This document shows positions 31,301 through 37,300 of a DNA stretch of 64,000 nt, in pieces (position 1 is the stretch's first letter; the number at the start of each line of letters is the position of its first letter). The stretch comes from Escherichia coli. GTDB taxonomy: Bacteria > Pseudomonadota > Gammaproteobacteria > Enterobacterales > Enterobacteriaceae. The stretch lies in assembly GCF_016903815.1 (NCBI RefSeq), contig NZ_CP069973.1. One strand, given 5' to 3'. The position numbers were made by a program.

Positions 31301-34300
31301 GTCACCCCGGTCAGTGATGTTCACGCCGGCACCCGGGAAGTGCAGCGCTTCCGTCTGAATGGCCATGGTCACAGCATGGTTATCACTGACCTGCCCGGGG
31401 TGGGCGAGAGCCGGGACAGGGATGCAGAGTATGAAGCCCTGTACCGTGACATTCTGCTCGAACTGGACCTGGTACTGTGGCTGATTAAAGCCGATGACCG
31501 TGCCCTGTCTGTGGATGAGTATTTCTGGCGACACATCCTGCACCGGGGACATCAGCGGGTACTGTTTGTGGTGATGCAGGCCGATAAAACGGAGCCCTGC
31601 CATGAATGGGATATGGCCGGTATTCAGCCTTCTCCCGCAGAGGCACAGAACATTCGCGAAAAAACGGAGGCGGTATTCCGTCTGTTCCGGCCCGTACATC
31701 GGGTTGTTGCCGTATCGGCCCGCACCGGCTGGGAACTGGATACGCTGGTCAGTGCGCTCATGACAGCACTTCCCGACCATGCCGCCAGTCCCCTGATGAC
31801 CCGCCTGCAGGACGAGCTGCGCACGGAGTCTGTCCGGTCTCAGGCCCGTGAACAGTTTACCGGTGCGGTGGACCGGATATTTGACACGGCGGAGAGCGTC
31901 TGCATTGCCTCTGTTGCACGCACGGTTCTGCGCGCCGTCCGTGACTCGGTGGTCTCTGTTGCCCGCGCGGTATGGAACTGGATTTTCTTCTGAACCCGGT
32001 GGTGATGTACCAGGCTGTTGTTACAGATTTTTAACTCCATGAAAACACTATGCAAACGCAGCCATACCCGGGTTGTCCCCTTGCGTTGTGTTTCTCAAGT
32101 TAATAGAATACATCGATCGTTACTATCATATCGATCGTTATAAACGATCGTTTGTAGTAAATGACCTCCTCCTTGGTTGTCATGAAAATGCGTCTTAGGA
32201 AGGTTAAATAATGCACGAAAAGAACATCGCCCTGCTTTGTGATGAAGCCGACCGACTTTTGCAACTGAACATTAATCTGCTCCGGCAAATGGTTGAGGAG
32301 CCAGATGTGTTATCTGACAGTAAGAACGAAAACAGACTGCTTTTTGATAAACAGAAAGCACTGAAAAGAATTGAGGAGCTGGAGGGCGAACAAATCAAAA
32401 CCGCCCGCAGGGAGATGGTGCTGGCTGTTGTCGGCACGATGAAAGCAGGCAAATCAACCACCATCAACGCCATTGTGGGGCAGGAAATTCTGCCTAACCG
32501 TAACCGCCCCATGACCTCTGTACCGACGCTCATCCGCCACGTTCCCGGAAAAACTGAGCCGGTTCTCCATCTGGAACATATTCAGCCTGTCCGCAATTTA
32601 TTAATCACACTGCAGGAAAAACTCGCCACCCCGGCAGGACAGCAGGTCGCACAGACCCTGCAGCAAACCGGGGATACCCGCGAACTGCTGGATATTCTGA
32701 CGGATGATGGCTGGCTCAAAAATGAATACCACGGGGAGGAGGAAATCTTTACCGGACTGGCATCGTTAAACGATCTGGTTCGTCTTGCTGCGGCAATGGG
32801 GACTGAATTTCCTTTTGATGAATACGCCGAAGTGCAGAAACTGCCGGTGATCGACGTGGAATTCAGCCATCTGGTGGGGATGGATGCATGCCAGGGAACA
32901 CTCACACTGCTGGATACCCCCGGCCCTAATGAGGCCGGACAACCGCAGATGGAAGTGATGATGCGGGATCAACTGCAGAAAGCCTCTGCGGTTCTGGCTG
33001 TGATGGATTACACCCAGATGAACTCAAAAGCGGATGAAGACGTCCGTAAAGAGCTTAATGCCATTGCTGACGTATCAGCCGGCCGCCTGTTTGTACTGGT
33101 CAATAAATTTGATGAGAAAGACCGCAATGGCGATGGGGCAGATGCCGTACGCCAGAAAGTTCCGGCAATGCTGAACAGCGATGTGCTGCCCGCCTCCCGT
33201 GTTTATCCCGGATCCTCACGCCAGGCATACCTGGCTAACCGTGCGCTTCATGAGTTACGGAAAAACGGAACCCTTCCTGTTGATGAAGCCTGGGTCGATG
33301 ATTTTATCAGAGGTGCCTTCGGTTGCATGAAAAAAGAATACGTCTGTAAAGACAGTGAACTGGCAACTGAAGGGGCGACAGACCTGTGGGAAGGCTCACT
33401 TATCGATCAACTGATAACGGAAGTCATACAGAGCTCACATTCCAGAGCTGCGGCACTGGCGGTTGACTCTGCCGCCGCAAAACTGATGCAGAATGCAGAA
33501 AATATCAGTGAATACCTGTTGTTACGCCATCAGGGGCTACAGCAAAGCATTCAGTCACTGCAGTCGCATATCACCAGCCTGCTTGCGGATATCCGGGAAA
33601 TCGCGGACTGTCAGGAGCAGATGACCACTGATGTCAGAATGGCCATGGAGGAGATCGATACTAAAACCCGGGAATTACTGACGGGGGTCTGCACCTCACT
33701 GGAAGAGGAGCTGAATGACTATTTCAGAAGCGGTAAACGCAAAGAACAGCAAATGCTGGAGGAAGAAGACGCAGAACAACGAAGGTCTCAGTCCGGATTA
33801 TGGGGGAAAATTTCTCAATGGTCCGGTATCAACAACCAGGGCCGGGAGGATTACAGGAAACGAGATTTTGCCCCGGACAGCCCCGAAATAAAATTCAGTG
33901 ATCGCAGGGAAGCCCTTGAACTGATGACGCAAATCGAATCGACCGTGACCAGCCTGCACCGTGAGGCTGAAGCACAGTTCCGGCCTGAGCTGGAGAAAAT
34001 CGTCAGCGGGATTGAAACAGGTTTTCGTGGCACGGCCCTGTACGCCACAGAAAACATTGCCGGTCGCATCAATGCCCGCCTGGAGGATGAGGGCTTTACC
34101 GTAAAAATCAGTTTTCCGGCAGTCAGCCAGTTACAGACCCGGCTCGCGGTAAAAATAAATCTGAGTGCGCTTATGGAGGAAAGAACGGAGACCGTCACCC
34201 GTCGCCGTCGGCAGAGTGGCGTATGGGGAACCGTTTGTCGATGGTTTGGCACCAGTGACCTGGGCTGGGAAAACTATGACGAGGATGTGAGTCGCAGCGT

Positions 34301-37300
34301 GATCAATATCAACAAGGTCAGAGAGGAAGTTATGTCACTGACCCGGGCATATTTCGGGGAGCTGCAGGCATCCATTGAGCAGGATATTAACCAGCCCGTC
34401 CGCCAGGAAATCGATGCCTTTTTCTGCGCATTCAGGGAGAAAGTTGAACAACTGCGTAACACGCTGATTCAGAGCTCTGAAGATCATAAACGCGATCAGC
34501 AGGCGCAGGAACGGCTTACCGGGCGACTTCAGGCATTAAATGAAAGGGTTCCTGAGCTCATTACTGACAGTAAGGCGCTGAGGGAAGAGCTGGAGACAAT
34601 GCTGTGACTTCACCATTTATTCAACAAATTGCTGATAACCGGGTATGTCAGGTACTCACCTGTCTTCCTGAAAAATTTGTGGTTGATTTCGCAAACGGAA
34701 TCGATGTTGCACAGGAGCATATCCGCACGGCCGGAGAGCGCACGTTCTTCCGGCGTTTAAAAGAGGGGCTGACCGGCGAAGGCGCTGCACGGCAGAATGC
34801 CATCAATGCGTCGCTTGCACAGGGCGTTGAGGCGTCCCTGCGCTGGCTGACGGAGATGACAACGTCACTTGCCACCACAAACTACGCGATTACCCGGGTA
34901 AACGACAGGGTCAGTTCACTGGTCAGTGATACAGCCAGGCTGGCGCATTATTCCGCAGATACGCGGGAGCAGTTACTCACCCTGGCCGATCAGGTTCACC
35001 ATAAACTGAATCATCTTGAAGAAAAACTCCACCGTGTTGACCAGGTTCAGCGGGCGCAGTTACATCTTGAGCAGATATTCTCATGGTGGAGCGCCGGGCG
35101 ATATGCGTCATTTTCCCCTGCCGGACGTTGTTATGTGGCACTTGAAGAGCTTCGCTGGGGCGCGTTTGGTGATGTGATACGTCAGAGCGAAACAGGCCAG
35201 GTTAACCAGCTACTGGATATTCTCAGACATAAAGCATTAACGCAGATGGCACAGGAGAGTGGCGGTAGTGCAACCGTGCGTCTGAACACTCTGGACTGGC
35301 TTGGTGGTCAGGGCCGGGAGCAGGCAGATAACGAGTGGCATGACGCGATTAACTGGCTGGGAGACTGGTGCAGTGAAGAGCAGCATCCGGTGATCTGGTC
35401 AACCACGCAGGCTGCAGAACACTTACCGGTTCGCATGCCTCGCCTCTGCTCTGCAGAACGCCTCTCTGAAAGTATGGTCGATGAAATATTTCAGAAGGGG
35501 GCTGCATGAGTACAGAAATGAAAACGGGGCTGGTGCTGTCCGGTGGCGGGGCGGTGGGCGCTTATCAGGCGGGAGTGGTTAAGGCACTGGCAGAGTGTGG
35601 TACACAGATCAGCATGGTTTCAGGGGCCAGCATTGGCGCATTCAATGGTGCCATTATCGCGGCCTCTCCCGATCTGTCAGAAGCTGCCGTACGCCTGGAG
35701 GCGCTCTGGGATCATCTGGGGAATAATCAGGTGCTGTCGGTAAACAGATTGGTTTACTTTTCATTGCTGAAAAAATTGTTCCAGGCAATGAACCTCTGCC
35801 AGATCCCCGGACGTGCAGGAGCACTGCTTACGACGCTTCTTCGCCATATATCGACAATCAACGGGTTTGACAATCTGATGGCTCAGCCGTTGTTGTCAGA
35901 TGAGCCCCTGACAGCGCTGATGGATCATTATCTTGATACTGATGCTCTGGCAGACGGGCTACCGCTGTATGTGTCGCTGTACCCCACAGAAGGGGGCATG
36001 CAGGATATTATTGACTGCATTCGTGCTGAACTGGGTGTCGGAACCACGAAAAACGCCGTTTTTCAGCATATCCAGAGCCTGCCCCGCGGACAGCAGAAAG
36101 AGGCTCTGCTTGCGTCAGCCGCGCTGCCCCTGCTGTTCCGTCCCCGTGAGGTTCAGGGGACAATGTTCGGTGATGGTGGTATGGGAGGATGGCGAAATAT
36201 GCAGGGAAATACCCCTGTGACGCCTCTGGTCGATGCCGGATGCAATATGGTGATTGTGACGCATCTGAGTGACGGTTCTTTATGGGATCGCCAGGCTTTT
36301 CCGGACACCACAATCCTTGAGATCCGTCCCCGGAAAAGGCTGAAATATGCAGGTGATGGTGGCAACAGCGGCGGTCTGCTCAGTTTTACATCGGCACATA
36401 CCGACGCCTGGCGTCAGCAGGGCTATGAAGACACGATGCTGGCGATGGAGCATATCCGGAAACCGCTGGCAGCACGTCAGGCACTGACCCGGTCAGAGGC
36501 GGTATTGCAGAAAAGCCTGGATATAACGGAAGAGGCAGATTTGGCACTGAGAAACGCGATGGCCCGGATTAAATAAAGACGCCCCAAAGAAACGCCACCG
36601 CCTGTGGTGGTGTTTTTCCTGTCTGGTGTTATTGAAAATATTTTCAGATATATATTACCTGAGAGAAAGTTTTACCCCTCACCTGTCAATTCACTCACTG
36701 GAAATTTAATTATGAAATTACCTGTAAAGTTATTAATGAGCCTTATATCTCTGGTCAGCGTTATTGCACGTGCCGGGGAATATAAAAATTACAGCCGGGA
36801 TGAAATAAAATACTGGCGATATACATCATACAAGGGGGGGAAACTTCCGGAAGGTTTCACTGATGAGAAATTTTCCAGCGCCATTTACAACGGAAGAATA
36901 TTTACAATGAAACGTTTACATACCCTTATGTTATTTCTGGCGGTTCTGTTCACGGGCTTTAACTTTAACGCAGAAGCGGCTACCGTAAAACAAGCTCTTA
37001 GTTGTAACCCAGAAGCCTGGGCTGAACAACCTGGAGCGTGTCCATCAACGTACGAGTTGTACGAAGGTGACGCTACCTACAAAGCCGCTATCGACAAAGC
37101 ATTAAAACCGGTCGGACTGAGCGGCATGTTCGGTAAAGGCGGCTATATGGATGGCCCTGGTGGAGGTATCACGCCAGTAAACATTAACGGTACAGTCTGG
37201 TTCCAGGGCGACGGTTGCAAAGCCAATACCTGCGGCTGGGACTTTATCGTAACACTCTATAACCCAAAAACCCATGAAGTTGTTGGCTACCGTTACTTTG

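Follow-up and report, generated by a model that had tools for sequence, protein, structure and literature searches.

An operon encoding a dynamin-like GTPase, an RdcB-family protein and a patatin-like phospholipase behind an agn43-type leader in Escherichia coli: a candidate GTPase-gated defence module

Gene organization of the locus

The analyzed stretch of DNA, a window of 64,000 nucleotides from the chromosome of Escherichia coli (contig NZ_CP069973.1 of the RefSeq assembly GCF_016903815.1), contains an operon of three genes that encode a dynamin-like GTPase, a protein of the YjcZ/RdcB family and a patatin-like phospholipase (Table 1) and that are referred to as the trio in the following. 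The original prediction, which was made from the nucleotide sequence, had described a translationally coupled operon of intact genes, and its coordinates, lengths and strand for the three open reading frames (ORFs) as well as both stop/start overlaps, GTGA between the first and the second gene (34604-34607) and ATGA between the second and the third (35506-35509), turned out to be exact to the base. The ribosome-binding site AAGGGGG is located ahead of the third gene. A 4.7-kb stretch around the trio is shared at 100% identity by many strains, among them E. coli strain 7/2. The features annotated in strain 7/2 are collinear with the window throughout. In the identical region of strain 7/2 the same three coding sequences are annotated in RefSeq, with the product names 'dynamin family protein', 'diguanylate cyclase regulator RdcB family protein' and 'patatin-like phospholipase family protein'.

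The gene order in the window is amn, three tRNA-Asn genes, cobTSU, a genomic island, tmaR and the his operon, the island lying between cobU and tmaR, where it fills the CP4-44 site. In RefSeq more than ten genes of the island are annotated as frameshifted or truncated, so that the trio is indeed intact amid decayed neighbours, an observation from which selection had been proposed. Comparison with E. albertii bore this proposal out, as the ratios of nonsynonymous to synonymous substitutions (dN/dS) were 0.24 for the dynamin gene, 0.10 for the rdcB-like gene and 0.32 for the patatin gene, indicating purifying selection.

Table 1. Coordinates of the trio genes, of features within and around them and of adjacent genes in the window
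Feature	Position	Strand	Evidence or remark
Dynamin-like GTPase, RdcA/YjdA/CrfC paralogue, 798 aa	32211..34607	+	ORF, NF007368, Pfam, AlphaFold2 model
YjcZ/RdcB-family protein, 301 aa, GTG start, all-helical, presumed adaptor	34604..35509	+	PF13990, AlphaFold2 model
Patatin-like phospholipase, 356 aa	35506..36576	+	Pfam, motifs, PDB sequence matches
Clade-specific dynamin insertion, aa ~525-550, 25-50 residues	33783..33860	+	alignment and AlphaFold2 model
Basic/Trp-rich motif RRRRxSGxWGTVCxWFxTxDWGWExY of the dynamin, aa ~665-692	34203..34286	+	alignment
Predicted Dam/OxyR switch, GATC at 32115, 32133 and 32146 in predicted OxyR tetramer site 32112-32148	32112..32153	+	homology, consensus
Putative sigma-70 promoter, TTGCGT 32081-86, 17-nt spacer, TAGAAT 32104-09	32081..32109	+	sequence reading
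Terminator-like hairpin CCACCGCCTGTGGTGG followed by a T-run, directly 3' of the patatin stop codon	36595..36620	+	consensus match
YeeP/YfjP-type small GTPase, island backbone, marks the agn43 slot of CP4-44	31121..31993	+	outside the conserved trio
Two downstream signal-peptide ORFs, annotated as hypothetical proteins	36712-37395, 37411-37821	+	outside the conserved unit

The first two genes are paralogues of rdcA and rdcB

The 798-aa protein matches the Pfam family Dynamin_N (PF00350; 1.6e-17), and its GTPase domain extends approximately from residue 67 to residue 335 (nt 32409-33215), with the P-loop lysine K81 and the G2 threonine T102. The motifs G1 GTMKAGKST, Thr, DTPGPNE (G3) and NKFD (G4) named in the original prediction were recovered as stated when the protein was re-read. 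Among 30 dynamins of the trio clade, G1 and the G2 threonine are invariant, DTPGPNE is found in 29 and NKFD in 28 sequences. The helical stalk, likewise proposed beforehand, is backed by an AlphaFold2 model (pLDDT 77.8; pTM 0.61) in which the GTPase domain is followed by very long stalk helices comprising residues 447-526, 565-625 and 700-758. The top PDB matches of this model in a Foldseek search were folds of the bacterial dynamin-like protein (BDLP) class, namely Nostoc BDLP (2j69; 3e-12), SynDLP, IniA, MFN1/2 and LeoA. The protein therefore combines a GTPase domain containing G1 to G4 with a helical stalk, as is characteristic of the BDLP/mitofusin class.

The NCBIfam model NF007368 (CrfC) aligned with the GTPase from end to end (1.2e-166; residues 1-797 versus model positions 1-736 of 742), with a score of 556 bits compared with the curated equivalog cutoff of 1146 bits. 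Orthology to CrfC/RdcA was consequently rejected, and since the identity to RdcA (YjdA/CrfC) of strain K-12 is 33%, the GTPase is regarded as a paralogue of RdcA. The middle gene product, initially taken for an anonymous coiled-coil protein, was reassigned to the YjcZ/RdcB family because PF13990 (YjcZ) covers its full length (4.7e-70); it displays 30% identity to RdcB (YjcZ) of K-12 and yielded no informative fold or PDB structural match. The YjcZ family is small: its members form 438 clusters at 50% identity in a set of 1.84 billion representatives. The end-to-end alignment and the identities of both proteins thus define the first two genes of the trio as paralogues of the rdcA-rdcB operon. 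The original prediction had overlooked this paralogy, as well as the agn43-type switch located just 5' of its coordinates.

The likeness to RdcA/RdcB comprises full-length homology of both proteins, identical G1 to G4 motifs and the same overlapping arrangement of the two genes. The core rdcAB pair, in contrast, occupies a fixed locus beside proP, belongs to the flagellar regulon and consists of two genes, whereas the trio is accessory and mobile and brings its own enzyme. As candidates for an RdcA/RdcB regulator, the trio proteins include the YjcZ partner but reach neither the equivalog score nor share the core two-gene locus. RdcA dimerises and binds RdcB, as detected in two-hybrid assays, and the MASE1 transmembrane domain of DgcE (PMC6510439). 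The P-loop variant K82A of RdcA is active, whereas the hydrolysis mutant T103D is inactive and has lost DgcE binding, from which the authors concluded that GTP inhibits and that the nucleotide-free RdcA/RdcB complex is the activator (PMC6510439).

A clade-specific insertion distinguishes the trio dynamin from core RdcA, being present in 30 of 30 trio-clade dynamins and in none of 44 core RdcA sequences. It consists of a Lys/Arg-rich stretch and a subsequent short hydrophobic or amphipathic segment, and it appears in the model as a low-confidence loop (residues 528-548) between the two longest stalk helices, 447-526 and 565-625. In BDLP this position is occupied by the membrane paddle, and by analogy the trio dynamin may engage the membrane via this stalk-tip insertion, which would suit a protein with a lipase partner. 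RdcA itself was reported to be soluble (Pfiffer et al., PMC6510439). The basic/Trp-rich motif listed in Table 1 hardly varies within the trio clade, whereas core RdcA retains it only in part and in degenerate form; in the model it falls between the beta strands 655-667 and 686-699.

Comparison of E. coli dynamin alleles revealed an almost fixed GTPase domain (dN/dS 0.05) and a divergence hot spot at residues 351-560 (nt 33261-33890; dN/dS 0.40). The operon of O157:H7 is mosaic, with rdcB-like and patatin genes that are near-identical to those of the window and a dynamin gene with a dS of 0.22. The hot spot and the mosaic operon suggest, at the level of allele comparison, recombination or diversifying pressure on the stalk.

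The third gene encodes a patatin with complete catalytic motifs

The 356-aa protein matches the Pfam family Patatin (PF01734; 7.4e-24) and contains all three catalytic signatures claimed for it, the GGGxxG oxyanion hole, GxSxG with the catalytic S42 (nt 35629-31) and DGG with D223 (nt 36172-74). GxSxG and the aspartate are present in 34 of 34 homologues, and the oxyanion motif in all 33 that are full-length, the 34th being N-terminally truncated in the alignment. According to these motifs the trio lipase is a catalytically complete patatin and a predicted phospholipase. It shares GGGxxG, GxSxG and the DGG of the Ser-Asp dyad with CapV of the cyclic oligonucleotide-based antiphage signalling system (CBASS) and with ExoU, VipD, PlpD and RssA, and differs from CBASS and other patatins in a subfamily-specific C-terminal region. 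This region is strongly conserved over residues 221-310, with the highest values in the bins covering 221-260, and represents a candidate docking surface. CapV and the other lipases named above are inactive until a specific activator binds, which is cGAMP in the case of CapV and ubiquitin in that of ExoU; the presumed activator of the trio lipase is the GTPase complex. Membership in CBASS was rejected, as the operon contains no gene for a CD-NTase or any other synthase of a nucleotide signal and the CBASS_lipase model scored 18.3 bits against a cutoff of 200 bits. Matches of PADLOC phospholipase effector models to the trio patatin were marginal (1e-4).

In sequence comparison with the PDB the N-terminus of the lipase matched PlpD (4e-12), VipD and ExoU best, and the islands involved also carry virulence genes, so that the patatin might be exported like these proteins as a host-directed or interbacterial effector, with the other two genes being accessory. 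Such a role appears highly improbable: the matches span just the region of about 60 residues around the oxyanion hole and the catalytic serine, the lipase is devoid of a signal peptide, an autotransporter domain and a secretion-system neighbour, and it is strictly linked to two cytoplasmic proteins across free-living environmental bacteria.

The trio is inherited as one unit

Conservation of the three genes across genomes was checked by scanning one genome per species with a profile of the RdcB-like protein, and the resulting 79 loci were sorted by tblastn with the window proteins. In an accessory clade of beta- and gammaproteobacterial loci the genes for the dynamin, the RdcB-like protein and the patatin are all present, with unchanged order and strand, in 29 of 29 cases, whereas the patatin gene is missing beside the gene pair in 50 of 50 loci of a core clade comprising Citrobacter, Enterobacter, Kosakonia, Leclercia and similar genera. 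Hosts of the accessory clade include E. albertii, Pantoea, Erwinia, Budvicia, eight Pseudomonas, Allochromatium, Thiodictyon, Macromonas, Aquaspirillum, Comamonadaceae, Paenacidovorax, Gallionella, Marinospirillum, Pontibacterium, HdN1, Yanghanlia and several metagenome-assembled genomes. The same arrangement was detected in Klebsiella, Yersinia, Pectobacterium and Methylomonas, in an E. coli variant with 66% identity and even in a distant member of the family (E = 1e-37). Moreover, across 30 loci the three proteins are correlated in their pairwise identities (r = 0.86-0.89). With respect to E. coli, the trio is present in 2443 of 5426 complete genomes (about 45%), in up to five places per genome, and core rdcAB in 5404 of them (99.6%). 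Since trio-bearing strains keep rdcAB, the trio is an extra copy and not a replacement of the core pair. We consider it very probable that the three proteins act together.

Variants of the arrangement were also observed. A metagenome contig (L104:7001-9630) contains, after parE and parC, a gene for a 532-aa DUF3944-YjcZ fusion that overlaps a patatin gene, with no dynamin gene. In Methylomonas koyamae (L085:9617-9916) an extra ORF of 99 aa, for which no Pfam match was obtained, is located between the dynamin gene and the rdcB-like gene, and this ORF recurs in a second metagenomic contig (L086). Judging from the dynamin-less variant, the YjcZ-lipase pair may be the minimal core, and a direct link between RdcB-like protein and lipase may exist. 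Along with the taxonomic breadth of the trio, this variant makes pairing with a lipase look like the rule for YjcZ proteins and enterobacterial rdcAB like the exception; from this breadth, and not from a rooted phylogeny, we infer that rdcAB is the derived form. A universal fourth gene was rejected, as clustering of 280 flanking ORFs yielded only WYL regulators (four to five loci), integrases and a JukA-like gene (three loci) as recurrent neighbours.

A leader homologous to the agn43 regulatory region precedes the trio in Escherichia

The 217-bp leader upstream of the trio contains three copies of A[T/A]CGATCGTT[A/T], and its three GATC sites lie within approximately 40 bp inside an OxyR match, in a region homologous to the regulatory region of agn43. 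None of 100 shuffled versions of the window contained the switch motif pair. The OxyR consensus is matched at 16 of 20 specified positions at 32112-32148, compared with 14 of 20 in the K-12 agn43 site; in the background, the best score obtained per 141 nt has a mean of 9.9, with 0.3% of background windows reaching at least 14. The leader aligns with the yeeP-flu intergenic region of K-12, with the TAGAAT -10 hexamer and all three GATC sites in register and with a conserved distance of 5 nt between TAGAAT and GATC-I, and the switch region aligns also with the cah leader of O157. In K-12 the leader RNA IsrC is annotated as beginning at the G of GATC-I, from which a transcription start of the trio at G32115 and a leader of 96 nt can be predicted. 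The agn43 start of strain EC958 was mapped by 5' RACE (rapid amplification of cDNA ends) 228 nt upstream of the ATG (PMC4807369). Differences from agn43 concern the spacing of the first GATC sites, which is 18 nt at the trio versus 19 nt at agn43, and the leader downstream of GATC-III, which is unrelated to that of agn43 and shorter (about 96 nt).

The region comprising the switch and the gene start is present in 1981 E. coli genomes and also in E. albertii, and three divergent E. coli copies as well as the E. albertii copy keep the three GATC sites despite flanking substitutions. It was not found upstream of the trio in any other genus, nor in the E. coli variants with 56-66% identity, which characterizes the switch as a local regulatory capture outside the conserved machine. 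In approximately 480 genomes, including that of O157:H7 strain 86-24, only the beginning of the dynamin gene is matched, but not the window's switch region. In strain 86-24 (L098:1801-10358) the order is GTPase gene, switch, cah encoding an Ag43-family autotransporter, trio and a DUF932 gene, with the trio 110 bp downstream of cah, and co-transcription of cah and the trio is possible there. From this order the arrangement in the window represents the same slot without the autotransporter. In the CP4-44 element of K-12 the slot filled by the trio is held by flu. Accordingly, agn43 (flu) and the agn43-yeeR-irmA operon share with the trio the slot after a YeeP-type GTPase gene and a homologous three-GATC leader (PMC3764049, PMC4807369), whereas the cargo is an autotransporter adhesin in the case of agn43 and consists of cytoplasmic GTPase/lipase genes in the case of the trio.

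OxyR represses agn43 at unmethylated GATC sites and Dam methylation blocks OxyR, the resulting state being heritable and switching at about 1e-3 per generation (PMC3764049, PMC2909390). Genes downstream of agn43 are co-transcribed from its promoter and de-repressed in oxyR mutants (PMC4807369). The leader homology together with this known behaviour predicts phase variation of the trio in Escherichia, and the Escherichia copy is probably phase-variable. No description of the upstream switch at the trio was found in the literature searched. A 2026 RNA-seq paper had already described the operon as strongly up-regulated in Kapi1 lysogens, independently of the medium, in a comparison of MP1 wild type and cured cells with two colonies each, and mentions neither Ag43 nor Dam nor phase variation (PMC12922286). 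The same paper reports a five-gene cluster that is up-regulated together on an island carrying the trio operon (PMC12922286). As a simpler reading, which is a hypothesis and not a finding, the 'lysogen-specific' induction in MP1 could be a clonal difference between ON and OFF phases.

The agn43-type leader bears on an interpretation of the trio as an accessory signalling or physiology module, in which the GTPase and the RdcB-like protein would read the GTP or growth state and either use the lipase for remodelling membrane lipids or feed into DgcE and cyclic di-GMP (c-di-GMP), thereby adapting the aggregating or biofilm-forming Ag43-ON subpopulation. The closest characterized relatives control the biofilm matrix via DgcE (PMC6510439), the Escherichia trio shares its switch with, or directly follows, the aggregation adhesins Ag43 and Cah, agn43-linked genes are known to be co-transcribed (PMC4807369), and some trio loci are found among ordinary metabolic or transport genes. 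On the other hand, the trio occurs in many bacteria without Ag43 and without an upstream Dam/OxyR switch, it is patchy, mobile and often near defence genes, and its identity to RdcA/RdcB is only 30-33%, with the core pair retained alongside. On balance, we regard a signalling role as rather unlikely.

Trio loci often lie in mobile and defence-rich contexts

In the window, the trio follows the YeeP-type GTPase gene of a CP4-44-like island, and in a second E. coli lineage it is inserted between the AlpA and integrase genes of a CP4-57-like element. It is accompanied by a WYL regulator, a DUF927 gene and an integrase gene in Pseudomonas aestuarii, adjoins integrase and ars genes in Yersinia, is located at the end of a CbtA/CbeA island in Pectobacterium and lies in Allochromatium in a Uma2/Fic block between the genes for isoleucyl-tRNA synthetase and signal peptidase II. 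Additionally, a variant with 62% identity is present, flanked by insertion sequences (IS), on IncF/IncR plasmids of Klebsiella, Enterobacter and E. coli. On the K. pneumoniae plasmid pER18167_3A.2 (L099:6977-9004) a gene labelled 'dGTPase' is a dynamin gene 5'-truncated by IS1; it was rejected as a dGTPase defence gene since the label is a misnomer.

The plasmid loci could point to an addiction, stabilisation or inter-element conflict module, in which the other two proteins restrain a latent toxic lipase and the main effect is retention of the island or plasmid in the population. The trio constitutes compact IS-flanked cargo of IncF/IncR plasmids beside CcdAB and RES toxins, it is also carried by CP4-type islands with CbtA/CbeA, and patatin lipases are potentially lethal. 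Three large genes of 4.4 kb with a conserved GTPase are nevertheless unlike known toxin-antitoxin pairs, a feature of a labile antitoxin is not evident, and a phase-OFF state would defeat addiction. This alternative is accordingly considered improbable, although somewhat less so than export of the lipase.

Anti-phage or anti-mobile-element defence, the interpretation favoured here, is connected with a different set of neighbours. PADLOC identified BrxC (E = 0) at a distance of about 2 kb from the trio in Pantoea eucrina, a PDC-S24/Fic neighbour (1.7e-178) at the HdN1 locus and partial MADS matches near the trio in two Pseudomonas loci. JukA (2.4e-58) is encoded 43 bp downstream of the trio in Erwinia, with homologues in two more loci, and the M and S subunits of a type I restriction-modification system are encoded directly downstream in P. 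putida. A 933-aa neighbour at one further locus (L019) matching the PADLOC model RTasPolA was taken for an ordinary DNA polymerase I on the basis of its length and the model name and was not counted as a defence protein. In four loci (L008, L010, L013 and L021) a gene for a WYL-domain regulator of approximately 300-345 aa precedes the trio by 0.6-2 kb in the same orientation; the loci with an upstream WYL regulator belong to Pseudomonas, Aquaspirillum and Paenacidovorax, and the WYL protein is a possible dedicated regulator of the trio where the Dam/OxyR switch is absent.

The DefensePredictor study (Science 2026, PMC13092281) lists the 798-aa protein WP_000544741.1 (mean log-odds 6.71) and the 794-aa protein WP_000544634.1 (log-odds 7.70) each as 'Predicted novel defense gene'. 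One listed allele is located about 0.9 kb from the HEPN gene DS-38 of the tested-systems table, in which the term 'dynamin' does not appear (PMC13092281). The defence-gene neighbours, the mobile contexts and the DefensePredictor listing lend indirect support to a defence function.

Comparison with dynamin-based systems and proposed function

The Eleos system (formerly 'Dynamins'; LeoA and LeoBC) likewise uses dynamin-like GTPases in anti-phage defence. The fold of the trio GTPase matches LeoA (4aur; 2.4e-6), and LeoBC was given as remote homology of close alleles by DefensePredictor (PMC13092281). Eleos contains two dynamins and neither a YjcZ partner nor a lipase, whereas the trio combines a single dynamin with both. 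Membership in Eleos was rejected, as the LeoBC match is only 8.6e-05 over residues 29-89, a LeoA match was not obtained and one dynamin is present. DynA of Bacillus subtilis, according to the citation in PMC12922286, seals membrane damage and delays phage lysis with an anti-phage effect at the population level; it acts at the cytoplasmic membrane and is, like the trio GTPase, a BDLP-class protein. It differs from the trio GTPase in that it is a fusion of two dynamins, lacks both a lipase and a YjcZ partner and protects membranes rather than degrading them.

We lean, by a small degree, towards a role of the trio as a GTPase-gated lipase in anti-phage or anti-mobile-element defence. Transfer of the RdcA/RdcB logic would make the dynamin/RdcB-like pair the gate and the patatin the gated enzyme, i.e. 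the BDLP/mitofusin-class GTPase and its RdcB-like partner would form a nucleotide-gated switch with the cytoplasmic patatin as output. In the healthy cell the trio would hold the lipase inactive, by analogy with RdcA/RdcB, for which GTP means off. A fall in GTP or a disturbance or damage of the membrane might act as trigger, upon which the GTPase would assemble at the inner membrane via its basic/hydrophobic stalk-tip loop and the RdcB-like adaptor would recruit or activate the lipase. The activated lipase would then hydrolyse membrane phospholipids, leading either to killing of the infected cell (abortive infection) or to lysolipid-assisted membrane remodelling or repair. In Escherichia, the position of the operon behind the antigen-43 Dam/OxyR switch would restrict expression of the trio to a heritable subpopulation. 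The term 'abortive infection' remains our inference, since no phage, toxicity or lipase experiment on the trio was found.

A number of observations weigh against this interpretation. The characterized relatives RdcAB act in signalling and not in defence (PMC6510439), and the slot that the trio has in common with the adhesins Ag43 and Cah in E. coli would suit a surface or biofilm lifestyle equally well. The trio was not detected in 50,697 phage genomes (INPHARED) nor in IMG/VR contigs. The neighbours submitted to PADLOC were a sample of about 20 hand-picked proteins, which is suggestive rather than an enrichment statistic; those of three loci (L006, L022 and L025) gave no PADLOC matches, and the contexts in Klebsiella and Methylomonas are unremarkable. 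A PADLOC v2 search with the three proteins and the upstream GTPase returned marginal partial matches only (LeoBC, ZorA and phospholipase effectors), in agreement with the earlier statement that the trio matches no named system. Literature searches on dynamin, patatin, YjcZ and defence and on patatin with phase variation retrieved no functional study of the trio; its novelty is nevertheless lower than originally implied, as the genes are common, annotated in RefSeq and already remarked on (PMC12922286). Contact of the lipase with the GTPase or the RdcB-like protein is postulated by analogy, the all-helical AlphaFold2 model of the RdcB-like protein is of low confidence (pLDDT 66), and both the upstream switch, deduced from consensus and homology, and the hairpin at 36595-36620, deduced from a consensus, are only predictions.

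A more specific version of the defence interpretation is put forward tentatively and is on the whole doubtful. According to it, the trio would be a widespread, unnamed immune or conflict module in which the dynamin and the YjcZ protein read the GTP or membrane state and unleash the patatin. In Escherichia the captured agn43 switch would render expression of the module bistable, and the RdcAB-DgcE biofilm pathway of Enterobacteriaceae would be its domesticated, lipase-less derivative.

Neighbouring genes on the island

The two signal-peptide ORFs downstream of the trio have zero matches in NCBIfam, Pfam or PDB and are not found beside the trio in E. albertii, O157:H7 or any other species. A strong terminator is located 3' of them at 37963-37992, and they may be expressed by readthrough from the trio promoter. 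The first of these ORFs contains a second, internal signal-peptide-like segment (MKRLHTLMLFLAVLFTGFNFNAEA). Identification of this 227-aa protein as Ivy-like was rejected, as Pfam, NCBIfam and PDB gave no match, and identification of the 136-aa secreted protein encoded by the second ORF as IrmA, encoded in the operon agn43-yeeR-irmA, was rejected, as it matched no PDB chain sequence.

Upstream of the trio, the YeeP-type GTPase gene adjoins the three genes in Escherichia only. Directly 5' of it, at 29874-31037, lies a 387-aa hypothetical ORF (WP_000514100.1) with a proline-rich middle part and no NCBIfam match. In the island as a whole (~13200-42100, cobU to tmaR), IS100 (istA/istB) is intact, ISL3, IS66 and IS4 persist as remnants, and many metabolic genes are frameshifted, as is the cbtA toxin gene, which lies beside an intact cbeA antitoxin gene.

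Significance

The trio is an assembly of known kinds of proteins, a BDLP-type GTPase, a YjcZ partner and a patatin effector, and as such it is real, intact and under selection. It is unnamed even though it is present in nearly half of the sequenced E. coli, with ST131-type clinical strains and O157:H7 among the carriers, and plasmids of Klebsiella and Enterobacter carry it as well. Already known were the computational flagging of trio alleles by DefensePredictor and the description of the operon in PMC12922286. New aspects are the RdcA/RdcB paralogy with the mechanism that it suggests, the strict conservation of the trio across Proteobacteria as opposed to the lipase-less core pair, the clade-specific stalk-tip insertion and the agn43-type epigenetic switch.

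The kinship with RdcA/RdcB leads to the testable concept of a GTP-gated activator, for which K81A and T102D are the equivalent point mutants, and for the poorly understood YjcZ family it suggests that the normal job is that of a lipase partner. As a consequence of the switch, expression differences between clonal derivatives, for instance a lysogen and a cured strain, may mirror the ON or OFF phase rather than regulation. If the defence function is true, the trio would represent a membrane-lipid effector arm under the control of a mechanochemical GTPase and, in E. coli, an epigenetically bet-hedged form of immunity.

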